DNA of 64,000 bases, from contig PLDK01000025.1 of the NCBI GenBank assembly GCA_003135135.1, positions 106,376-170,375 of the forward strand. Direction: 5' to 3'. The notes under the pieces are model-generated. The model saw only the letters and a program-made list of their open reading frames with translations. It had not been told where the DNA came from and made no database searches. Shown here piece by piece: positions 5,188 to 45,936 of this stretch. This stretch comes from Deltaproteobacteria bacterium (GTDB lineage Bacteria > Desulfobacterota > Binatia > Binatales > Binataceae). Position 1 is the first letter of the stretch. Every line of letters starts with the position of its first letter. A program made the position numbers and the translations under genes.

Positions 5188-6522
5188 TCAATGCGTCAGG
5201 AGCTGATTTTCGGTTACAACAGGTCTCCGGCCCGGCCAATCGCCGCGCGAATGAATCGCGAGCGCACCTGCTCCCGGGCCAGCATCCGCTGCGCCGGCGG
5301 CATCGCGAGGATCGTACGCAAGGCCGCGTTCAAGAAACGCGCGCCGCGCCCGGCCCCCCTCGTCGAAGAGGAGCTGTGCGAGCCGGCCGCGCTCGATCAC
5401 CATGCGCAGCGTGCGCTCGAGCGTGTCGCGCGGGATGTAGGGCGGCTTCCCATCGCGCCGCATGCGCATCGCATGTTTCCGGCAGGCGTCGGCGCACAGA
5501 CCGCAGCCGATACATCGATCCTCGTCGACGAGCGGGTGCAGCTCGTTGGTGCGCCGCGCCTCGCTACGCTCGGGACGCATCGTGATCGCGCCGACCGGGC
5601 ACGCCCGCGCGCACCGCGAGCATCCGGCGCACTTGTCGGGATCGGAGTGCGGCTTGAAGCCGCTCGGGTTTACCCCGTGCAGATCGTACCGGTTGATCGA
5701 CTGAAGCTGGGTGCAGCAGCATGCGCAGCAACTGCAGATGTAGGTCGGCTGCTGGAGGACGTTGTCGGCGATATGGACCAGGCCGCGGGCGCGCCCGACG
5801 GCGAGCAGCTCGAGCGCTTCCGAACGCTCGATGGCGCGGCCGAAGTTGCGGCGGATGACGAAGTCCGCACCGGCGTTGAGCGACATGCAAATCTCCTGCG
5901 GCGCGTCGCAGGCTTTGCCGAGATGCGAGGCCTTGTGGCGGCAGTAGCATAGCGACACGGAGTGGGATTTCGCGTCGCCAACGATCGCGGTCGCGCGCTC
6001 ATAGTCGAGCACCTCGGGCACGTCGTCAGCCAGGGCAGACTCATGCACCAGCGCGCGTCCGATCACGGTTTCTTCGCCAAAGACCTCGCGCACGAACGTG
6101 TCGTCGCCGTGCACGTAGGCGTCGAGCGCCTCAGCCATGCGCTTTTTCGGGATCGAGTCCTTCGCGCGCATCATCGAAAACTCGAAGAACCCGACCACCG
6201 GCGGCGCCAGAACGTACTTGGTATCCCCGGTCTTGGGATGGACCAGGTCGAGTACCAGGCCGCGGTCACAGAGCGCATCCAGGCGCGGCTTGAGCGCCTC
6301 GGGGGCGAGATTTAGGCGACGGGCAATGCCGTCAAGGCCGGTTGGCGCGACCGGCATCCGCGAGGCGAGGTCGGCCTCCTCGGGGGTGTAGAGGATCTCG
6401 AGGATTTCCTTCCAGCCATTCCAGGCGCGCGGGTCGCGGGGTTCCGGGAGCGCGACCTGAGTAGCCTCGAGGCGGCGCACGAACGCGCGGTACTCATCCT
6501 TGAGATGGCCCAGGTGCCCCAT
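5188..6522 (-). CDS. 4Fe-4S dicluster domain protein with a Cys-dense region
   Basis: 444 aa with two ferredoxin motifs (CAGCSRCARACP, CIGCGLCADAC), ICSCCACCC and LCYC...C...C. The N-terminal segment looks winged-helix-like. Confidence 0.7.
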   Translation of the reverse strand: MGHLGHLKDEYRAFVRRLEATQVALPEPRDPRAWNGWKEILEILYTPEEADLASRMPVAPTGLDGIARRLNLAPEALKPRLDALCDRGLVLDLVHPKTGDTKYVLAPPVVGFFEFSMMRAKDSIPKKRMAEALDAYVHGDDTFVREVFGEETVIGRALVHESALADDVPEVLDYERATAIVGDAKSHSVSLCYCRHKASHLGKACDAPQEICMSLNAGADFVIRRNFGRAIERSEALELLAVGRARGLVHIADNVLQQPTYICSCCACCCTQLQSINRYDLHGVNPSGFKPHSDPDKCAGCSRCARACPVGAITMRPERSEARRTNELHPLVDEDRCIGCGLCADACRKHAMRMRRDGKPPYIPRDTLERTLRMVIERGRLAQLLFDEGGRARRAFLERGLAYDPRDAAGAADAGPGAGALAIHSRGDWPGRRPVVTENQLLTH

Positions 6523-6746
6523 CCGAACCTCCCCTAAGACCGCTGAACCGGGATTTGATTTTGACTCTCCGGTTCCAACTCGGCGTATAGACCCAACGGC
6601 CTCCTGCTACAAAGCTCTAGCAGGTTTCGGTCTCCGATGCTTCCAGCGGAGCCGCTATTGCGCAGGTTTGGCGGTCTTCGAGGCGGTCGCAATCTCTTGC
6701 ACGAATGGCCAGGCCATCTTAAAGCTGTGCTTCTTCGGCAGCATTC

Positions 6747-7496
6747 ATGACGGCGAATTCAAGCAACGAAAACGAAACTCGCGACACGATCCTGGACGGG
6801 CGTATCGCGCTGATCCAGCCCAGGCATGGGTACCGCTTCTCGGTCGAGGCGATTTTGCTCGGCCGCTTCGCGCGCGCGAGTACGCGCGAGCGAGTGCTCG
6901 AGTTGGGCGCCGGATGCGGCGTTGTAGCGATCATGATGGCCGCCCTTTATCGACCGCGCGAAGTCGTCGCGATCGAGATCCAGCCGGCGCTGGCGGCCAT
7001 GATTGCCCGCAGCGCCACGCTCAACGGCATCGAGTCTGTGAATGCGGTTTGTGGCGACCTTCGGCAGAGAAAAATCGCGGGAGTCGAGCCTGCAAGTTTC
7101 GACCTGGTCGTCGCGAATCCTCCCTATCGCGCAGCAGCCGCCGGCCGCGAGAATCCCGACCACGGCCGCCGCCTTGCACGCGGCGAAAGCGCTGCCGTTT
7201 CCGTGCTCATGGATTTCGTCGCGGCCGCGCACCGCTACGCGCGCCGCGGCGGGCGGGTTGCATTTGTCTTCACCGCACGCAGAAGCGCCGAGCTGATTTC
7301 CGCGATGCGCTCGAAGCAGCTCGAGCCCAAGCGCATCCGTTTCGTTCATCCGCGGATTGCGATGCCGGCATCGGTGATGTTGATCGAGGCCCGCGCCGGC
7401 GGCGGAATCGAAGTAGCTATCGAGCCGCCGTTGATTCTCTACGAACGTCCGGGGATATACACCAGCGAAGCGCGCGCGATACTCAGTTCGCCCTGA
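6747..7496 (+). CDS. SAM-dependent methyltransferase, tRNA1(Val) (adenine37-N6)-MTase (YfiC/TrmN6)-like
   Basis: 249 aa with the SAM motif LELGAGCGVV and the N6-adenine MTase motif VVANPPY. Confidence 0.75.
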   Translation: MTANSSNENETRDTILDGRIALIQPRHGYRFSVEAILLGRFARASTRERVLELGAGCGVVAIMMAALYRPREVVAIEIQPALAAMIARSATLNGIESVNAVCGDLRQRKIAGVEPASFDLVVANPPYRAAAAGRENPDHGRRLARGESAAVSVLMDFVAAAHRYARRGGRVAFVFTARRSAELISAMRSKQLEPKRIRFVHPRIAMPASVMLIEARAGGGIEVAIEPPLILYERPGIYTSEARAILSSP

Positions 7497-7563
7497 CTGA
7501 GATACCTCGCCCGTTATTTTACGGGAGAGGAGGCCGACCGCCTGGCGGTCGGTAGGTGAGGGT
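7497..7563. repeat. 67-nt structured intergenic repeat, copy 1 (family E)
   Basis: ctgagatacctcgcccgttattttacgggagaggaggccgaccgcctggcggtcggtaggtgagggt. It is near-identical to 32901-32968, has two hairpins, and sits between convergent stops. Confidence 0.8.
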
Positions 7564-7582
7564 TCTGGATCGAGCGCAACTA

Positions 7583-8467
7583 TTACTCAGACGTAAGGAA
7601 TTCGCTCGCTTGATCCGCGACGTAGCCGGGCATTTCCATCGGCATAAAATGGCCCGCGTCGGCCACATCGATCACGCGCCCGTTCTTGAGCTGCTTCGCG
7701 ACTTTTTCGGATAGCACTGCGCCGAGCGAATCCTCGCGCGCGCCGAACATTATCAACAGCGGCGCCGTGCAGCGTAAAATTCGCCCGAGTCCGTCGAAGT
7801 CGCGCGCCGTTTCGTAGAATTTTGCCTCGACCTCGGGCGCGCATTTGAGTTCGCGCCGGCCGTCGCTCGTCGGACGCGTCCCGAACTGGCAATAGTCGCG
7901 GACCATCTGCTTATCCCAGGTGTTATACGGCGGCTTGTTGTGGAAGCTCGAGTACATCGCCTCGACGCTGTCGAAAATGCGCCTGCGCTTCAGCGTCCGC
8001 TTGACGAACGGATCGCGCCATCCGAGTTCCGGCGCGGTCGGCGACTCGAAGATTACCGGCTCGACCAGGACTGCGCGTGAGATCAGATCCGGGCGCTCGC
8101 AAGCAAGGCCGCCGATCGCCGTCGCGCCGGCAGAATGGCCGACCGTCCTGACGCCAGACCATCCCATCGAAGTTATAAACCCTTCGAGGTCCCGCATCGT
8201 CGAGTCCCAGCTATAGTCGCCGTCGGCTGGCGCCGAGCTGTCGCCGTGGCCGCGCTGATCGTAACTGTACACGTGACCGATCGCGCGCAGCGGCTCTGCG
8301 AGCGGCCGATAGATGCGGCCGAGAAATCCGGTCGCGTGCACAATCACGATTGGCGGGCCGTCGCCGCCCCAGTCCAGCGTATGCATCCGGATGCCGTTGA
8401 CGTTCACGAAGCTCGACGCCGGTTCACTGAATTTCGAGCTGCTGTTCCGGGGTTCGATTTTTTCCAT
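7583..8467 (-). CDS. Alpha/beta hydrolase
   Basis: 294 aa with the nucleophile elbow GHSAGA, an HG-type oxyanion region (IVIVHATGF) and a C-terminal GHF. Confidence 0.8.
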   Translation of the reverse strand: MEKIEPRNSSSKFSEPASSFVNVNGIRMHTLDWGGDGPPIVIVHATGFLGRIYRPLAEPLRAIGHVYSYDQRGHGDSSAPADGDYSWDSTMRDLEGFITSMGWSGVRTVGHSAGATAIGGLACERPDLISRAVLVEPVIFESPTAPELGWRDPFVKRTLKRRRIFDSVEAMYSSFHNKPPYNTWDKQMVRDYCQFGTRPTSDGRRELKCAPEVEAKFYETARDFDGLGRILRCTAPLLIMFGAREDSLGAVLSEKVAKQLKNGRVIDVADAGHFMPMEMPGYVADQASEFLTSE

Positions 8468-8511
8468 GTCTCAGGGTTTGCGAGGAACTGCACTCGCGAC
8501 GGATTCAGTAT

Positions 8512-9807
8512 TCACCGGTTGGCTTTGTTCTCGATCGCCGCCGGCTCCCGATCGACAGCTTTGGCCTCGGGAGACCGGATGTCTTCGAGTGTAAGCGTCT
8601 TGAGCAGGTCGTTGCGCAGGGCGCTTATCTTCGCCAGCACGCGGTCGACGCGCGGATCGCCGTCGCTGGCGCCCTGATCGAACTCGACGGATTTGAGCGC
8701 GTCCGCCAGGACGATCGTCGAAGACTGGCGCGCCAGAAACAGCCCCCGGTTCAGCGGACCGGCGCTCGAATCAGCCTCGATTACAAAGCCGCCGGCCTTG
8801 AGTCCCTCTAGAATCGGGAGAATTGCGGCTTCCGCGACGAAGAGTTCGCGGGCGAGCGTCCACGACGTGACTTCGTCACCGCCGTGAAAGGCGCGATCCG
8901 CCAGCCGGATCAGGATGTGCATCGTCGCCGAATACAGAAAATCCGGCGACATTGGCCCCAGCATCGGCGGCACGTCACCGCGCTGTACCGCCGCGGTCAG
9001 TTCGGCGCCGAACAGAATCACCGACCACGCGATGTAGATCCAGACCAGGAAAATCGGCAGCGTCGCCATCGCGCCGTAGATTGCCCGATAGTTGGCGACA
9101 CCCACCTGGAAGCGCACGTATCCCCACTGCGCGAGCTGAAACAGCACCGCGGTCACAAACGAGCCGATCAGCGCAGGAACATATTTGACTTTGGTGTAGG
9201 GGAAAAAGACGAACAGGAAAAAGAATCCGGCCCACACGAACAAGTACGGCAGTAGTTGGGTGATAAATGGAAATTGGGAAATCCGCACCGAGAAAACCGC
9301 GGTCACGCCCAGCGCCGCCACGATCAGGAACGGCACCGTGAACAGCACGCTCAAGTAGTCGGAGAACTTGCGAAAATAGCTGCGGCTCTGCGGCACGCTG
9401 AAGATCGTGTTGAGCGCCTGCTCGACCGTGCCCATCGTGGAAATAACCGTGACGAGCAGGAACGCGCCGCCCGCCGAACCCAGTGCGGCCGCATTCACGT
9501 TCTCGACGTAGCCCATCAGCTGCGACGACGATGGGCCGAGTCCCAGGTATTGCTCGACCAGTGGACGCAATCGTTGCGCGCCGCCGAATCCTTTAACCGC
9601 GGAAAATGCCAGCGCAAGAATTGGTACGATCGACAGCGCGACCGTGAAAGTCAGCGCGGACGCGCGCAGCAGATCGTTGTTGCTGATGAATCCTTCGACC
9701 GTGTGGTTCAGGACGTGCCAGACGTGAAGCGCGGTTGTGTGCCGCGATGCCCTCGCTTTGAGGTCCAGCGTCTTGCTCTCGAGCCAGCCGGGTGTGCGTC
9801 GCGCCAC
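8512..9807 (-). CDS. YihY/BrkB family inner-membrane protein with C-terminal extension
   Basis: 431 aa. Multi-pass membrane core with the typical ASALTFTVALSIVPILA...ANYRAIYGAMATLPIFLVWIY signature. Confidence 0.8.
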   Translation of the reverse strand: MARRTPGWLESKTLDLKARASRHTTALHVWHVLNHTVEGFISNNDLLRASALTFTVALSIVPILALAFSAVKGFGGAQRLRPLVEQYLGLGPSSSQLMGYVENVNAAALGSAGGAFLLVTVISTMGTVEQALNTIFSVPQSRSYFRKFSDYLSVLFTVPFLIVAALGVTAVFSVRISQFPFITQLLPYLFVWAGFFFLFVFFPYTKVKYVPALIGSFVTAVLFQLAQWGYVRFQVGVANYRAIYGAMATLPIFLVWIYIAWSVILFGAELTAAVQRGDVPPMLGPMSPDFLYSATMHILIRLADRAFHGGDEVTSWTLARELFVAEAAILPILEGLKAGGFVIEADSSAGPLNRGLFLARQSSTIVLADALKSVEFDQGASDGDPRVDRVLAKISALRNDLLKTLTLEDIRSPEAKAVDREPAAIENKANR

Positions 9808-9945
9808 GTCAGATTACAGCTGCGATACTCATCCGCGATTCCCACCGCAGGATTGCGCCGCCGCCGATTTGCCCTTCACGAATCGATTGTCAGGGCATGT
9901 CTTGCGCGATGTCAAGCGTGCGGCCGCGCGGCGCGTTGCGCGCCC

Positions 9946-12426
9946 ATGCGCTTTGCGATTAGCTCATCGTTCATGGCTCGGCTGGCAGCGCACGGAAAAT
10001 ACCTCCTCGACGGCGCGCAGAAATTCTATCTTCGCGGCGTTTCGTACGGGCCGTTTGCTGCAAATTCCCGCGGCGAAAGGTATCCCGAGCCCGACCGCGC
10101 CGCCGCCGACTTCGCCCTGATGAGCCGGCTGGGCGCCAATCTGATTCGTCTCTATGTTCCACCGCCGCCGTGGATGGTCGAGGAGGCGCAGAAGGCTGGA
10201 CTGCGCATGATGCTCGGCGTCCCGTGGCCGTTTCACATGGCATTTTTGGATTCACGCGACATGATGCGCGACATCCGCGACGCGATCCGCAAGACGGTTC
10301 TCGAGACGCGCGAATTCGGCGAGACCATCGCAGCCTATAGCATCGGCAATGAGATTCGATCGGACATCGTGCGCTGGCACGGGCCGCGCGCCGTCAGCCG
10401 CTTCCTCGCCGAACTCCGCGACCTCGGAAAACAGATCGATCCGGGCGCGCTGTTCACCTATTCGAACTATCCGTCAGCCGAGTATCTTGATCTGAGTTTT
10501 CTCGATTTCATTTCGTTCAACGTGTATCTGCATCGCGAGGAAGACTTCCGCCGTTACCTGACTCATCTGATGGGACAAGCCGGCGAGCTGCCGCTGGTGC
10601 TCAGCGAAACCGGCATGGATACGGTCCGCGAGGGCGAGCAACATCAGGCCGAACTCCTCTCATGGCAGTGCCGTGCGGCATTCGAACTGGGATTGTCCGG
10701 CTTCATCGTGTTCGCATTCACCGACGAATGGCACACCGGCGGATCCGAGATCACCGACTGGGCATTTGGACTGACCCGCCGCGATCGCTCGCCCAAACTC
10801 GCCTTCGACGCGGTCGCCAAAGTTTTCGGCGACAATCTGCCGCCTCCGCTTGCGGCCGCTCCCAAAGCGACCGTAGTGGTAGCCGCCTACAACGCGGCAT
10901 CGACGCTTGGCGAATGCCTTTCCTCGATTCGCGAGCTCAACTATCCAGACTACGAAACAATCGTCATCGACGACGGATCGACCGATTCGACTTCTGAAAT
11001 CGCCAGCCGCGCCGGAGTCCGCGCGATTCGCATCGAGCACAATGGTCTGGCCGCCGCGCGCAACGCCGGCGTCGGTGCCGCATCCGGCGATATCGTCGCG
11101 TTCATCGACGCCGACGCGCGTGCCGATCGCGATTGGCTGTATCATCTGGTCGAGACGATCGAGCGCCGCGATGCGGCCGCGGCGGCCGGCCCGAATTTCG
11201 CCCCCGCTCCCGGATCTGCTCGCGCCGCCGCGATGGCTGCCGCGCCCGGACTGCCGCGCGAGGTGCGTGCCGGCGACGATCGCCTCGAGCAACTGTGCGG
11301 ATGCAACATGGCGATTACCAAAGCCGCGCTGCTGAAGGTCGGCGGCTTCGATCCGATGTTTGCCACCGCCGGCGACGACGTGGATCTTTCCTGGCGCCTT
11401 GCGGCGTCGGATGAAACGCTTGCGTACGCTCCTGGAGCGGTCGTGATTCACGAACGGCGTGCGACTCTCCCTGCCTACCTCCGCCAGCAGCGCGGCTACG
11501 GCGCCGGCGAGGGCTTGCTGCTGCGCAAATATCCGCTCCGGATCGCTAACCAAGACGGGATCTACGCGGGGCCGTCATGGATCGGCTCGATGTTCGGCGG
11601 CGCGCGCGTCTATTACGGCGCTTTCGGCCGCGGCCTCTTTCAGACCGTCTATTCGACTGGCAACTCGTACGCCGACCTGCCGCTAACCATTCAATGGGTC
11701 GGGTTGTCGCTGATTTTTCTGATCCTTGGCGGGGTCAATCGCTTGCTGGGCGTGCTCGGCGCTGGTGGAATTGCGCTCTCGATGCTGGCCGCTGCGGCGA
11801 GCGCGGCGTCTGCCCCCTTGACGCGCGCGCATCGCGGCCCGGCGGCGCGAATCTATCTCTGGATCGTCACTCTGCTCGGCCCTGCCGTTCGCAGTCTTGC
11901 GCGCGAGCGCGTCAAATGGCGATTCGAGCCCGCGACTGCCGGCGGAGATTACAACGGTCCGCTTAAATTAAACGGCCAGGTCGAGTTCCTCATGTCAGAC
12001 GGCGCCGTGCGAATCGATTCGGCGACGATACTTGCCGCCATCCGCGATGCATTGGTTCGCTGCGGCGTCGCAGTGGCCGAGACCGACGGCTTCCAGTCCT
12101 ACGATCTCGAGATCGTCGTTGCGCCGATGATTCGCGTGCCGATAAATGCGTTGCTCCAGAGCGACGGCAGCATCGCGCTGCTCTGGCGTCTTCGATCGGC
12201 GCCGCGCCGGGCGCTGATCGCCGCGGCAATCACGCTGCTCGTTTTGTTGGCCGCGGGATTCTCAGTGCGTGCGGGAATCGCCGGCGTAGTATGCGCCGCA
12301 ATCGCAGTCGGGCTGTTGGCGATCAATCGCGCGCGGCGTATTCCCGCGATCATCAAAGCTTGCGCCGCCGAAGTAGCTGGATCGCTTGGCATCTCAATGG
12401 CAAAGCGCTCGGAAGGCGACGTCTGA
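9946..12426 (+). CDS. Fusion protein: clan GH-A-type glycoside hydrolase domain + family 2 glycosyltransferase + C-terminal TM region
   Basis: The track ORF starts at 9256, but its first 230 codons shadow yihY on the other strand. A plausible start is ATG 9946 (or 9973). The N-terminal TIM-barrel-like region has IGNEI and LSETG. The GT2 block is VVVAAYNAASTLGECLSSIRELNYPDYETIVIDDGSTDST...FIDADA. Hydrophobic helices lie near the C-terminus. Confidence 0.75.
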   Translation: MRFAISSSFMARLAAHGKYLLDGAQKFYLRGVSYGPFAANSRGERYPEPDRAAADFALMSRLGANLIRLYVPPPPWMVEEAQKAGLRMMLGVPWPFHMAFLDSRDMMRDIRDAIRKTVLETREFGETIAAYSIGNEIRSDIVRWHGPRAVSRFLAELRDLGKQIDPGALFTYSNYPSAEYLDLSFLDFISFNVYLHREEDFRRYLTHLMGQAGELPLVLSETGMDTVREGEQHQAELLSWQCRAAFELGLSGFIVFAFTDEWHTGGSEITDWAFGLTRRDRSPKLAFDAVAKVFGDNLPPPLAAAPKATVVVAAYNAASTLGECLSSIRELNYPDYETIVIDDGSTDSTSEIASRAGVRAIRIEHNGLAAARNAGVGAASGDIVAFIDADARADRDWLYHLVETIERRDAAAAAGPNFAPAPGSARAAAMAAAPGLPREVRAGDDRLEQLCGCNMAITKAALLKVGGFDPMFATAGDDVDLSWRLAASDETLAYAPGAVVIHERRATLPAYLRQQRGYGAGEGLLLRKYPLRIANQDGIYAGPSWIGSMFGGARVYYGAFGRGLFQTVYSTGNSYADLPLTIQWVGLSLIFLILGGVNRLLGVLGAGGIALSMLAAAASAASAPLTRAHRGPAARIYLWIVTLLGPAVRSLARERVKWRFEPATAGGDYNGPLKLNGQVEFLMSDGAVRIDSATILAAIRDALVRCGVAVAETDGFQSYDLEIVVAPMIRVPINALLQSDGSIALLWRLRSAPRRALIAAAITLLVLLAAGFSVRAGIAGVVCAAIAVGLLAINRARRIPAIIKACAAEVAGSLGISMAKRSEGDV

Positions 12427-41773: not shown

Positions 41774-41989
41774 AGCATCGATTGTTACCCATGCTCCTGA
41801 AGTCATATTCGCCGATCACTGGGAAGGGATTTTGCCGGTTGATGCGGCTTCATCAAGCAACCGCTGCAAATGACCGGCAGGAGAATCGCGCCCCGCGTGG
41901 CCATCGTGGCCGGTATTCAAAGCGCAGGCTGGCGCAACGCTCGTATGCGGCGGCTTGAACTCCGAGGGGAACAAACGCTCGCCAGCCGC

Positions 41990-42463
41990 TCACTGATCGA
42001 AGCTGCCGGGACTGCTCGCCAGCACGCGAAATCGCATGCAGACGGTTGCACAACCACACCTCGAGTCGCAATTTCCGTAGATCTCGCCCGGTGACTTGAC
42101 GACCAGATCGAGCGGGCGCGTCTTGCCGGGCACGAGTTCTACGGCGTCCTTCATCCCAAGAATCCAGAAGCTGTGGAGCACGTCGGCGGAAGCAAGCTCG
42201 AGCCGAACGTTGGTAGCGCTTGGAACGCGCAAAACATCGCTGGTCTTGACGCCCACAGAGGGATAATCGAATTCCCACCACCACTGATGCGCGACCACTC
42301 GGACCGTAAGCGTAGGCCCAGTCACGCCAGCACCGAGGGTTCGACCTAGAAGGATCGCTCCGGCACAGATGCATGCCAGACCTATCATGGCTCCGACCAA
42401 TGGCCTCGACGATTTCACGCGTTCACTTCTTAAAGCGTACTGCCTGGTTGCCGCTGTCGCCAC
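41990..42463 (-). CDS. Orphan cytochrome-oxidase-subunit-II-type cupredoxin with modified CuA-like site, single TM anchor
   Basis: 157 aa with HQWWWEFDYP, DVLHSFWILG and GNCDSRCGCATVCM. There are exactly 34 residues between the His and the first Cys, and Met at +7 after the second Cys, as in CuA. Confidence 0.7.
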   Translation of the reverse strand: MATAATRQYALRSERVKSSRPLVGAMIGLACICAGAILLGRTLGAGVTGPTLTVRVVAHQWWWEFDYPSVGVKTSDVLRVPSATNVRLELASADVLHSFWILGMKDAVELVPGKTRPLDLVVKSPGEIYGNCDSRCGCATVCMRFRVLASSPGSFDQ

Positions 42464-43118
42464 GCGTCACCGGCTCGCGCGCCGCGGTTCGCTCCACGTC
42501 ACTCACGACCCGATCCGGCTCGGCCTTTTGACCTAAGTACTGAAGCAAGGCACGACCGTTCGCATCGACCAGGAAGAATTCGAGAACGTGATCGACCGTT
42601 CCATCGGGCTCACGCTGTCGAATCACGTTGAATCGCGCCATCTCGTCGTCGACCTGTTTGGGCGTTCCAGTCAGGAACAGCCAGCCGCTAACGTCGGCGC
42701 CCTGCTTGTTCGCATAGGCGAGAAGCTGCGCCGGATGATCGTGTTCGGGATCGACCGTGATCGACACGATGCGGGCCTCGGTTCCGAGCTTGGGTCCGAG
42801 TCGATTCGCGATCTGTTTCATCTGGGCCGTGAGCAGAAGACACGGTCCGGGACAGTTGGTGTAAATGAAATCGAACAGCACCGGTTTCCCCTTCAGCGAG
42901 GCCAGCGAAACGTTGCGGCCATGCTGATCGACCAACGTGATGTCGGGTAAGCAGTCGGAGGTATTGATGACCGCAAATCCTCCGCGCTCCCCGATATCTT
43001 CGGCCGGCCGGCGGCAACCAATCAGAGTCACCACGCCCACCAAAACAACCAGCATCGTCAGGCAAAGGCTTCTACTGAGACTCTGCTTCTTGAGATTAAG
43101 GCTTAGCGTTGGGGTCAC
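42423..43118 (-). CDS. SCO1/SenC family copper chaperone (lipoprotein)
   Basis: Lipobox LIGC, CxxxC motif YTNCPGPC, DPEHD and the conserved VDH. Confidence 0.85.
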   Translation of the reverse strand: MTPTLSLNLKKQSLSRSLCLTMLVVLVGVVTLIGCRRPAEDIGERGGFAVINTSDCLPDITLVDQHGRNVSLASLKGKPVLFDFIYTNCPGPCLLLTAQMKQIANRLGPKLGTEARIVSITVDPEHDHPAQLLAYANKQGADVSGWLFLTGTPKQVDDEMARFNVIRQREPDGTVDHVLEFFLVDANGRALLQYLGQKAEPDRVVSDVERTAAREPVTRGDSGNQAVRFKK

Positions 43119-43656
43119 CTGGATTCCCTGAAGTCTGCGTCGCGGGTTTCTCCGTGAGCAGCGGCAGCACCACGTCCGATAGACTCTTCTCGGTAACCGG
43201 CGTTTGGTCGGGTGTCAGCTTCGCGCGGATGACTCCGCTGCGATCTACAACGAATGTGACGGGCAGAACGTCGGGCGAACCGAAATCGTTGACTTTGGCG
43301 TCATCCAGCACCGCCGCCGGATAGCTGTATGATTGCATGACCTTGGTCACATCGGACCGATCGTGCGGGCGGTCGGTGCTGAGACCTATCATCTCGAGTC
43401 CCTGGGCGTGATACCGCCGATAGAACGTGTCGAGAGCTGGCATTTCCTCGCGGCAGGGCGGACACCAAGTGGCCCAGAAGTTGACGATTACGACTTTCCC
43501 GTGCTGCGCACTTAGATCGAATGCCTGACCATCCAGTTCGGGCACCTCCAGCGCCGGCGCCGCGTTACCAACACTCGCGGAGGCAAACGCCATTGCAGCC
43601 ACACATAGGATCATGCCGACTCCTGCTGCAGCAGGCCACAATGTCGTTCGCCTCAC
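43096..43656 (-). CDS. TlpA-family periplasmic thiol:disulfide oxidoreductase
   Basis: Signal peptide and the redox motif NFWATWCPPCREEMP. Confidence 0.85.
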   Translation of the reverse strand: MRRTTLWPAAAGVGMILCVAAMAFASASVGNAAPALEVPELDGQAFDLSAQHGKVVIVNFWATWCPPCREEMPALDTFYRRYHAQGLEMIGLSTDRPHDRSDVTKVMQSYSYPAAVLDDAKVNDFGSPDVLPVTFVVDRSGVIRAKLTPDQTPVTEKSLSDVVLPLLTEKPATQTSGNPGDPNAKP

Positions 43657-43672: not shown

Positions 43673-44782
43673 TCAGAAGCTGTAACTCAGAATCAGCTTG
43701 GCTGCATAGGATGCGGTCAGCTGATAACCCCTCATGTTTTGAAAAAATGGGACTTCAACGTCTGCGTAAGCCCGGACGACCCCGACTTTGGTCTCGATTC
43801 CCGGAGCAACGATAAAACGGGTGTAGCCGCTGTCGGCGGGATCTGCGGCCGTCCCTGTATCCCGCGTCCGATCAGAGGCAAGAAAGGTGAGCATAGGAGC
43901 GAGTTCCTTGAGAAAACCAACTTTGCCGAAGTTGTAGAAGCTTCCCACTGCACCATCGACTTCCCTGCCGGGCGTGTAGTGGTCCTGTTCCAAGAGCGGC
44001 AAATTGTAGTTGACCTGCACAAAGTAGTTGAAGGGGCGCTCCCCGAACGTCAACGGCAACGTCCCCAACTGCTTCGGTATTGTTCCCAGGTGGTAAACCC
44101 CCATAAGCAGATCAGTGCTTCCCGTGCCAATCTGCGTGTCGCGATCGAAGTTTGGATAATGCCAATCGCCGCTCGGGACCTTGACCCCCATCAGGAGTCC
44201 GGTCGACATGTCCTCCGACAGACCCGTATACATCCCCTGGATCCGGATATCGCCTATGGAGTTGTTCTGGTACCAATTGATGTCGGCGTTGTTGCCCTCA
44301 TAAGCACCCTTGTATTGGCGCACCCAATAGGGCACCTCGAGCATCGCTCCCCAGTTCCGATTGAACATGTACTGTGCGCCAAATTCCATGAAGTCTGTTC
44401 GGATGTACTTGTCGTTGTTGTAGGAGCCGGAGGCTGGCTGGGTCGCGTGGTAGTTTATGTACTGATCCATGAATTCATATTGTGTCCACACTTGGCCTCC
44501 GGACCCCTCAGGAAACAGTGCTGCGGTATCTACCTCGAAGACACCGCACCCGCATGCACAGGCCCAGCTCAGACCGGGCGTTAGACCTACGAGCAGAAGG
44601 GCAGGTAGCAAAAAGAGTCGGGTAACTTTGGCGGCGCCGGGCAGAGAGATAGCCACTCCCGCCAAAGGGCCAAGCTCAGAAATCCGTCGCATAGAACATC
44701 TCCCAGCGGACATCTTGCGATGCGCCGCTTGCCTGAAAGAGAGACCATCGCGCCGCGACATTTTGCGGCGCCGGGAACCCAT
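43673..44782 (-). CDS. Outer-membrane beta-barrel protein (transporter/MetA-phenol-pathway-like), mature N-terminus CACGCG
   Basis: Signal peptide ...LLLVGLTPGLSWA, then CACGCGVFEV. It has alternating beta-strand patterns, is rich in aromatics and ends in SYSF. The likely start is an internal Met (e.g. 44692). Confidence 0.6.
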   Translation of the reverse strand: MGSRRRKMSRRDGLSFRQAAHRKMSAGRCSMRRISELGPLAGVAISLPGAAKVTRLFLLPALLLVGLTPGLSWACACGCGVFEVDTAALFPEGSGGQVWTQYEFMDQYINYHATQPASGSYNNDKYIRTDFMEFGAQYMFNRNWGAMLEVPYWVRQYKGAYEGNNADINWYQNNSIGDIRIQGMYTGLSEDMSTGLLMGVKVPSGDWHYPNFDRDTQIGTGSTDLLMGVYHLGTIPKQLGTLPLTFGERPFNYFVQVNYNLPLLEQDHYTPGREVDGAVGSFYNFGKVGFLKELAPMLTFLASDRTRDTGTAADPADSGYTRFIVAPGIETKVGVVRAYADVEVPFFQNMRGYQLTASYAAKLILSYSF

Positions 44783-44809: not shown

Positions 44810-45166
44810 TTAGGCGGAGCGCTTTGGCGGCGGAGTGTCGGGAGCGACCTTAACATCGACTAGTCGCACTGCGTTCTTCACGGCAGTCGAGCCCAGAGCG
44901 CGGAGAACAAACTCCGGCAAGACCATCGCGGGGCGTGCGAGCAAGGTGTTCGACACGCGGTCGAACATTTGAATCGGCTGGCAAATGTTGATGGTCAATT
45001 CCGGCCGGCTCGGTCCGGAGACGACGACCAGGCCGGGATTCGAGGGAGCGCTGGCCAACAACATGACGATGGCCACGATTAGACTCAGGTCCCGCAAGTC
45101 CGCCTTTGAAAACAACTGCCTCATGCCGCAGCGACCAGTTCTAAAGCAATCCCCGCTCGCGTTCAA
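44810..45166 (-). CDS. Hypothetical small membrane-anchored protein
   Basis: 118 aa (or about 104 aa from MRQLFS) with one hydrophobic helix, LSLIVAIVMLLASA. No family was recognised. It is called only because it fits tightly between zip and the OMP gene on the same strand. Confidence 0.4.
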   Translation of the reverse strand: MNASGDCFRTGRCGMRQLFSKADLRDLSLIVAIVMLLASAPSNPGLVVVSGPSRPELTINICQPIQMFDRVSNTLLARPAMVLPEFVLRALGSTAVKNAVRLVDVKVAPDTPPPKRSA

Positions 45167-45189: not shown

Positions 45190-45936
45190 TCATCCGCGTA
45201 GCAAGCGGGTAATCAGAAAAATTATGAGCATCCCCATACAGGTGGCGACGCCAACCAATGGAGAGTCATGTTCGCGAGCTTCCGGCAGCAGATCCGAGGC
45301 GCCGATGTAAAGAAAAGAACCGGCGAAAAACGCAAGCAGCCACGGCAGGAGTCCCGCCCTCAAATTGAACATCAGCGTCGAGGCCGCACCGAGGACCGGC
45401 GTCAACATATCCACTATCAGCCAGAAAATGGCGCGTCTGGGCGAATTTCCATGCGCAAGAACGACCGTCACGGTGTTCAGTCCGTCGCTGAAATCATGCG
45501 CGATTATGCCAAATGCAATTAAGAGTCCCATCTCGACGCTCGTCTGGAAGCCGACACCGATTGCAACGCCGTCCAGAAAACTGTGAAACGCCAGGCCGGC
45601 CGCGGACATCGCGCCAAGCTCCATCTCATGAGATGGCGCCAAGTGAGGATGTTCGCGAGCACGGTGCATCGCCGTGTAACGTTCAAGTCCGAAGAAGGCA
45701 AGGAATCCAAGCGCAGTGATCGGCATGTACGATGCGCCGTGAGGAAAAGCGAAGACTTCCGGCAGTATGTCGAACAGCGCCACCGCCAACACCGCGCCGG
45801 AACTGAAGCCGAGCAGCAAATGAAGCCGGTCGCGCAAGCGCATGGCCGCCATGCCGCCCAACCCGGTGGAGAAGAGCGTGACTAGAGCAAGCAGTATTGG
45901 CGCGAATCGCATCGGTGGATTTTGCCCGGAGTTCAA
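45190..45936 (-). CDS. ZIP family divalent-metal transporter (ZupT-like)
   Basis: 248 aa, polytopic, with HSFLDGVAIG and IIAHDFSDGLN motifs. Confidence 0.85.
   Translation of the reverse strand: MNSGQNPPMRFAPILLALVTLFSTGLGGMAAMRLRDRLHLLLGFSSGAVLAVALFDILPEVFAFPHGASYMPITALGFLAFFGLERYTAMHRAREHPHLAPSHEMELGAMSAAGLAFHSFLDGVAIGVGFQTSVEMGLLIAFGIIAHDFSDGLNTVTVVLAHGNSPRRAIFWLIVDMLTPVLGAASTLMFNLRAGLLPWLLAFFAGSFLYIGASDLLPEAREHDSPLVGVATCMGMLIIFLITRLLRG

Follow-up and report, generated by a model that had tools for sequence, protein, structure and literature searches.

CuA is one of the few classical copper centres of biology; its ligand set is regarded as essentially fixed, and changes to these ligands have been studied mostly in engineered proteins. 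In the window considered here, a 64,000-nt stretch of contig PLDK01000025.1 from a Binatia bacterium, a gene related to cytochrome oxidase subunit II (COX2) keeps the spacing of this site with one histidine missing and additional cysteines close by. This raises the question of whether the altered motif is real, what kind of site it might form and whether its bearer still serves an oxidase. A literature search on the COX2-like family, on PCYCGC proteins and on Binatia copper systems found no description. Because the change is conserved family-wide, and because the genes lie beside those for copper chaperones and not beside oxidase genes, the family is probably an undescribed copper-handling protein. 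In our main reading, to which we assign a probability of about 0.55, the protein is a CuA-derived, sulfur-rich periplasmic copper protein, which would be matured by its own TlpA and Sco1 and act as a copper acceptor or buffer, not in respiration.

The COX2-like gene lies on the minus strand of the window (41990-42418, within an ORF at 41990..42463) and comprises the following features:

41993..42418, minus strand: COX2-like cupredoxin, translated part, 142 aa (Pfam COX2 and TIGR02866 matches; homologs start MKSSR; AlphaFold2 core and Foldseek)
42035..42175, minus strand: metal-site segment with H97, C132, C136, C138, T140, C142 and M143, in the numbering of the 157-aa ORF (direct reading; gap-free CuA alignment; family conservation)
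41990..41992, minus strand: in-frame TGA replacing an invariant Trp, W143 of the 200-aa homologs (TGG in the nearest relative; homolog comparison)
41819..41989, minus strand: C-terminal tail lost to the stop, 57 codons still in frame (read-through translation; tail conservation in homologs)

Translation most likely starts at the GTG at 42418, since homologs have the equivalent start MKSSR and the nearest relative has an ATG at this very position. The product would then be 142 aa long rather than the 157 aa assumed in the original prediction, in which the truncation by the in-frame TGA had also gone unnoticed; nearly all homologs are 200 aa long, and one full-length homolog, the P0001/L023 protein, is 92% identical. 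The ORF matches Pfam COX2 (PF00116) with 46.6 bits against a cut-off of 22 (E = 3.9e-12) and the CoxB model TIGR02866 with E = 2.2e-26, the score of 92.7 bits in the latter case falling below the equivalog cut-off of 147.7. An AlphaFold2 model has a single N-terminal helix preceding a cupredoxin core with pLDDT >90, the Cys loop (~67) and the C-terminal tail (<56) being poorly modelled, and a single-helix membrane anchor is predicted at residues 5-29 (200-aa numbering). With this model, Foldseek returned solely subunit II chains (E = 1e-13; TM 0.76 to Bradyrhizobium CoxB, 4w9z), including PDB 4txv, the TlpA–CoxB mixed disulfide. The HSFW and QWxWxF motifs of subunit II are kept as well, the latter with its Trp as HQWWWEF. 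We rejected a lipoprotein, as the Cys in the N-terminal helix is unconserved and has no lipobox, and judged an Fe–S cluster unlikely, as the N-terminus carries no twin-arginine signal and resembles a Sec-type anchor.

Read directly, the metal-site segment is H97-x34-C132-DSR-C136-G-C138-AT-V-C142-M143 (local sequence GNC132DSRC136GC138AT140VC142M143RFRV), with the codons of H97 at 42173-42175, of C132 at 42068-42070 and of M143 at 42035-42037 on the minus strand. The canonical CuA motif of Bradyrhizobium CoxB is H-X34-CXEXCX3HX2M, in which the first His and the Met are assigned to one copper and the second His to the other (PMC6669012). The family profile aligned to Thermus caa3 subunit II (2yev_B) without gaps (E = 2e-31), with H97, C132, C136 and M143 falling on CuA ligands, T140 over the second His, C138 over an Ala and C142 over an Arg. 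In addition, the Glu between the bridging Cys is Ser in the window protein, which lacks the complete ligand motif H-x34-C-x-E-x-C-x3-H-x2-M. The original prediction, drawn from this one sequence, had placed the motif in register with CuA, with the first His, both bridging Cys and the Met kept, the second His replaced and two additional Cys near the lost His. Each of these points is borne out: the alignment confirms the register, the four kept residues are invariant family-wide, the position of the second His is never His, and the two additional Cys are conserved across the family.

Among 5.8 billion proteins searched, ~168 clusters belonged to the family, the annotated ones being nearly all from Binatia, and a scan of one genome per species gave 32 further Binatia carriers. 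In an exhaustive search of 1.8 billion representatives, ~15 clusters (50% identity) had the Cys-rich loop, and no intermediates were seen between them and the next-ranked CoxB sequences with CxExCx3Hx2M. Of the ~160 distinct full-length family sequences, 144 combine the complete set of four loop Cys with the Met and with one more conserved Cys, the fifth, which stands in an A-P-x-C context in the C-terminal tail; the loop consensus is C-[DG]-x-x-C-[GS]-C-x3-C-M, and the first His and the Met are likewise conserved. The extra Cys and the loss of the His are thus not unique to one genome, the case in which the original prediction would have suspected a sequencing or decay artefact; with the loop invariant and the extra Cys conserved across the family, we reject such an origin of the motif. 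Of the His/Cys4/Met ligand set that had been proposed, the four loop Cys, the His and the Met stand as conserved positions, but the tail Cys had been omitted. The suggestion that Thr140 might co-vary with the extra Cys found no support: the position is T in 136 of the ~160 sequences and otherwise A, K, G, S or N, never His, so that small or polar residues alternate at what is simply a non-ligand.

The tail Cys is coupled to the extra loop Cys. Three independent lineages have lost one of the latter, and in all three the tail Cys is gone too (C142 and the tail Cys in the L027/P0009 lineage and in P0129, C138 and the tail Cys in P0134), whereas only 4 of the 148 sequences with all four loop Cys are without it. 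The joint losses argue for a functional link and, since paired loss is typical of disulfide partners, some of the extra Cys may be structural residues and not ligands. The L027 copy (10001-10600, Ca. Binatus soli UBA7539) reads CDSGCACATGSM, with Trp in place of the tail Cys and other changes at conserved sites; it is either decaying or a variant without the C142/tail-Cys pair. Two metagenome proteins, P0128 and P0130, continue after an N-terminal COX2-like half either with a MauE-like segment (LDCGCFG) or with sequence that is out of frame, and are probably frameshifted or chimeric assemblies.

In a maximum-likelihood tree, the COX2-like family forms one clade (100/99 support), with Binatia caa3-type CoxB beside it and a stem 1.21 substitutions per site long; the nearest canonical relatives of the family end in a cytochrome c domain. 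The family thus has a single origin within the Binatia, which would have been a duplication of a caa3-type cytochrome oxidase subunit II followed by loss of the first transmembrane helix, of the partnership with subunit I and of the cytochrome c domain. That the 57-aa tail is a remnant of that domain is a weak idea suggested by sequence: the nearest canonical CoxB has an ..APCAICH.. segment at a distance similar to that of the family's tail Cys. The tail Cys may accordingly be a vestige of the caa3 CxxCH haem motif, an idea that is likewise weak, since hhalign places this Cys one column off and draws its score from the RFRV..W segment. The family was present in 11 of 251 sampled Binatia genomes and in 5 of 12 in the window's own genus. 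This patchy distribution, combined with several decaying copies (the TGA in the window, two stops in G246 and several changes at conserved sites in L027), indicates that its function is dispensable.

The window copy is itself cut short. Its TGA stands in a column where Trp is invariant in the 110-sequence family alignment and in 32/32 other species-level genomic copies. The ancestral stop lies at 41816-41818 on the minus strand, and read-through of the TGA would give a tail with ..FPSEFKPP..VAPACAL..HLQRLLD.., the fifth conserved Cys being that of VAPACAL. An assembly error was rejected, as 21 contigs, drawn from six or more metagenomes, carry the identical allele and a base-by-base check in the independent metagenome assemblies L001, L003 and L006 gave the same codon. 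Selenocysteine was also rejected: Aragorn found no tRNA-Sec in the genome, no SelB was found there either (the best match to the model scored 110 bits, short of the cut-off of 242), and the aligned residue of the homologs is Trp and not Cys. A 17-bp hairpin starts 5 nt past the TGA (window 41925-41995, minus strand; -32.2 kcal/mol, z -2.8), and a lineage-specific Arg-to-Gly change (CGC to GGC) takes one mismatch out of it; the structure is not conserved in relatives with TGG, and we did not retain it as a conserved recoding element.

The window copy therefore carries a nonsense mutation that removes the tail and represents either a shortened variant or the first stage of gene decay. The position of the nonsense codon on an invariant Trp, the GTG start where the nearest relative has ATG, lineage-specific replacements of near-invariant residues (V for L in PSLG, I for L in GELxG, R for G/S in the interval of the bridging Cys, G for R in the tail) and a terminal branch that exceeds the sister copy's threefold in length suggest that a 142-aa, tail-less form is tolerated or is beginning to decay. 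That the window gene is a pseudogene in the making, its function gone here irrespective of the family elsewhere, is a serious contender that we place somewhat short of even odds. Against it, the truncated allele is fixed in contigs of at least six metagenomes, the 142-aa product still includes the cupredoxin domain in full with its four loop Cys, and dN/dS of this lineage is not clearly raised, a value that comes from very few substitutions. Moreover, the tail is still intact and in frame in the window copy, which implies either a recent mutation or partial readthrough of UGA.

The neighbourhood of the gene bears on what the family does. Upstream of it, on the same strand, lie:

42423..43118, minus strand: Sco1/SenC copper chaperone with CPGPC and a downstream His in ..VDHV.. 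(Pfam SCO1-SenC, E = 6e-28; synteny)
43096..43656, minus strand: TlpA/ResA-like periplasmic thioredoxin with WATWCPPC (Pfam AhpC-TSA, Redoxin and Thioredoxin_8; NCBIfam ResA/TlpA below cut-offs)
43676..44692, minus strand: outer-membrane 12-stranded beta-barrel channel, mature N-terminus CACGCG (homologs, AlphaFold2 and Foldseek, synteny)
44813..45124, minus strand: 104-aa protein with one hydrophobic segment, conserved first gene of the core cluster (synteny)
45190..45912, minus strand: ZIP-family metal permease, head of the cluster (Pfam Zip on identical contigs; coordinates mapped from L001)

The Sco1 gene, with its CxxxC and His intact, ends 4 nt before the COX2-like start and is preceded by the gene for the TlpA-like WCPPC thioredoxin, an arrangement conserved in synteny: of the 31 family loci with flanking DNA, 30 have Sco1 and the COX2-like gene side by side and ~25 have the TlpA-like gene in the cluster. 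The 104-aa protein, which has no Pfam match, and the barrel channel are syntenic in most family loci, while the ZIP permease is confined to Ca. Binatus-type loci, an FtrD-like gene lying upstream of the cluster elsewhere. The conserved order is 104-aa protein, barrel, TlpA-like protein, a protein of 128-140 aa (some loci), Sco1, PCYCGC (some loci) and COX2-like protein, after which some loci have a second Sco1, a rhodanese with MauE/DoxX, or a 302-aa protein with CopC-CopD. Rhodanese and MauE/DoxX directly follow the COX2-like gene in about half of the loci, and the window locus has neither.

Subunit I is rarely near. COX1 occurs within 10 kb in 3 of 32 family loci, never adjacent, compared with 47 of 48 canonical CoxB loci, and the genome of the window has three complete COX2+COX1 operons on other contigs, which leaves the window COX2 as an orphan fourth. 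A fourth, divergent COX1-like gene (181 bits) lies in the same genome at C38:61916-63268, outside the window and ~85 kb away, with no COX2 match beside it; it may encode a nitric-oxide-reductase-type or other member of the heme-copper family. The sole locus with a same-strand oxidase close by is L061, a divergent member, in which a COX2-COX1 operon (5656-10552, COX1 split over frames) lies just upstream of Sco-Sco-COX2-like.

The barrel channel carries CACGC directly after its signal peptide, invariant in 39 homologs, and its AlphaFold2 model (pLDDT 74) is matched by FapF (5o65) and the COG4313 channel (4rl8) with TM 0.6-0.7 in Foldseek. Its family, with >2000 clusters, is far larger than the COX2-like family, so the barrel must also occur without a COX2-like gene. 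C-x-C motifs recur in otherwise unrelated proteins of the cassette, namely LDCGCFG in MauE/DoxX (L021 9209-9676), HCYCRC in PCYCGC (L021 7511-7972), CACGCG in the barrel (window 44546-44560) and CGC in the COX2-like protein. Some loci further encode a 119-aa protein with a twin-arginine signal, HCCTCEFWGG...GWC and no Pfam match (L021 5415-5774), which might be a small periplasmic Fe–S or metal protein. Recurrent Sco1-PCYCGC pairs (L028, L031, L040, L048, L050 and L051, with up to four Sco1 genes in L031) suggest that PCYCGC proteins work with Sco paralogs.

Set beside CoxB/CtaC of the caa3 type (Thermus 2yev_B; Bradyrhizobium 4w9z and 4txv), the COX2-like protein shares the cupredoxin fold, the H-x34-C-x3-C-x6-M register, a predicted periplasmic domain on a membrane helix and the co-encoded Sco1 and TlpA, which mature CoxB. 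It differs in having no second His, a Ser in place of the Glu, two extra Cys in the loop and one in the tail, a single transmembrane helix where CoxB has two, and a 57-aa tail instead of the cytochrome c domain, and in never adjoining subunit I. Failing the ligand motif, the equivalog score, the linkage to subunit I and the two-helix anchor, it does not qualify as a functional CoxB. Subunit II of quinol oxidases (CyoA/QoxA) likewise combines the COX2 fold with a CuA site that has departed from the canon, and the CyoA structures 1cyw and 1cyx, the latter with an engineered CuA site, are among the sequence and fold matches of our protein. However, CyoA has lost the copper ligands wholly and stays with subunit I in an oxidase operon, whereas in the orphan COX2-like protein four of the six canonical ligand positions persist and thiols have been added.

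Two other groups of copper proteins invite comparison. PmoD/AmoD-type cupredoxins of methane and ammonia oxidisers have a CuA-like site outside any oxidase, in a stand-alone, membrane-tethered protein encoded with copper-handling genes. In PmoD, the site spans a homodimer and consists of Cys, Met and His, and the protein has neither a Cys-rich loop nor a linkage to Sco or TlpA. These proteins form a different family outside Pfam COX2, and no sequence match to them was seen. Carriers of Cu(I) with CXC or Cys-rich motifs, such as CCS domain III, Cox17 and metallothionein-like proteins, have the clustered thiolates typical of Cu(I) transfer or storage. The C-G-C triplet of the COX2-like loop and the C-x-C motifs of the neighbouring proteins recall them, but their folds are unrelated, and in the COX2-like protein the thiolates sit on a CuA loop together with a His and a Met.

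That the protein holds a metal site at all is suggested above all by the His, the Met and the bridging Cys, which have stayed invariant and exactly spaced over a very long stem; by CyoA, a copper-free subunit II that has not kept the site; and by constant neighbours of the kind that prepare and load CuA. From this conservation and gene context we infer copper as the metal. In the remodelled site, the copper position formed by the first His, the two bridging Cys and the Met would be retained, the terminal His of the other copper position would have given way to a small non-ligand, and three thiols (C138, C142 and the tail Cys) would have been gained around the lost His. After Sec export, the loop Cys would be kept reduced by the co-encoded TlpA-like reductase and copper would be handed over by the co-encoded Sco1, as for CoxB in Bradyrhizobium, where TlpA is established as the reductant and ScoI as the copper donor (PMC6669012). 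The Bradyrhizobium route is not simply transferable, because PCuAC, which is needed there for CuA assembly, is absent from all 25 Binatia genomes tested, including that of the window.

The filled site could take one of two forms: a binuclear, CuA-like core in which the thiolate of C138 or C142 caps the copper in place of the His, the other extra Cys being bonded to the tail Cys, or a small Cu(I)-thiolate cluster that uses all five Cys. More tentatively, and below the main reading in likelihood, we can picture a novel copper centre at the inner end of a Cys-lined route from the CxCxC channel, loaded by Sco1 and TlpA and either binuclear (His/Cys3/Met, with a tail disulfide) or tri- to tetranuclear (Cu(I)-thiolate with five Cys, His and Met), the tri- to tetranuclear form possibly being a Cu-sulfide given the adjacent rhodanese. 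As to its role, the protein would accept or buffer copper in the periplasm as part of an accessory cassette for copper handling. We prefer this, with weak support, to electron transfer or respiration because its partners are trafficking proteins (the CxCxC outer-membrane channel, extra Sco paralogs, PCYCGC, CopC/CopD and ZIP) and no enzyme is among them.

Electron transfer is one alternative. The protein would carry a modified mixed-valence binuclear copper site, a CuA with its terminal His replaced by Cys, on a tethered cupredoxin serving a non-oxidase partner, which could be the rhodanese and MauE/DoxX module. One copper has its full ligand set and neither bridging Cys is lost; the Trp of QWxW, the point of electron entry in canonical subunit II, is retained; about half of the loci have the rhodanese and MauE/DoxX genes in the directly following position; and one locus encodes a Cys-rich protein with a Tat signal. 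Yet the cassette encodes no redox enzyme consistently, the window version has neither rhodanese nor MauE, the neighbours mostly belong to trafficking, and three extra thiols near a redox-cycling copper would be prone to oxidation, so we hold this reading to be unlikely, at about one chance in five. The thiols themselves could instead point to a metal-free thiol-disulfide protein, a client or partner of TlpA and MauE/DoxX, in which the loop and tail Cys form structural or relay disulfides and the His and Met are structural. The joint loss of loop and tail Cys does resemble the covariation of a disulfide pair, genes for TlpA, MauE/DoxX and rhodanese recur, and C-x-C motifs occur in several proteins of the cluster; a pure thiol-disulfide role for the extra Cys is possible. 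For the protein as a whole we regard it as improbable: His97 and Met143 would hardly be expected to stay invariant across so long a stem with exact CuA spacing, the most constant neighbour is Sco1, several loci include CopC/CopD, and we know of no thiol oxidoreductase built on the cupredoxin fold.

Metallochaperones often look like their targets (CCS is similar to SOD1, Atx1 to ATPase domains), and the COX2-like protein could by the same logic be an assembly factor that mimics its target, passing copper from Sco1 on to the CuA or CuB site of canonical oxidases in place of the absent PCuAC. The lack of PCuAC in the window's own genome and the Sco-Sco-COX2-like arrangement downstream of the oxidase operon in L061 would fit. 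But PCuAC is equally absent from 14 Binatia genomes that have canonical CoxB and not the family, and the family is therefore not what compensates for PCuAC; we rejected it as a replacement, since PCuAC is absent with or without it. Its presence in so few of the 251 genomes and a linkage to an oxidase operon in 1 of 32 loci weigh further against this role, which we consider the least probable of those discussed.

A conserved natural family that keeps the CuA scaffold minus one His and plus three thiols would offer a ready test of how far the site can be retuned, and, because it brings its own chaperone genes, its assembly could be reconstituted. Even if the protein binds no metal, it clearly shows how an oxidase subunit has been taken over for a different function. 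For the Binatia, which are abundant and uncultured inhabitants of soil and peat, the cassette points to an undescribed copper route in the cell envelope, which would run from an outer-membrane channel tipped with a Cys triad through TlpA and the Sco paralogs to the COX2-like acceptor.
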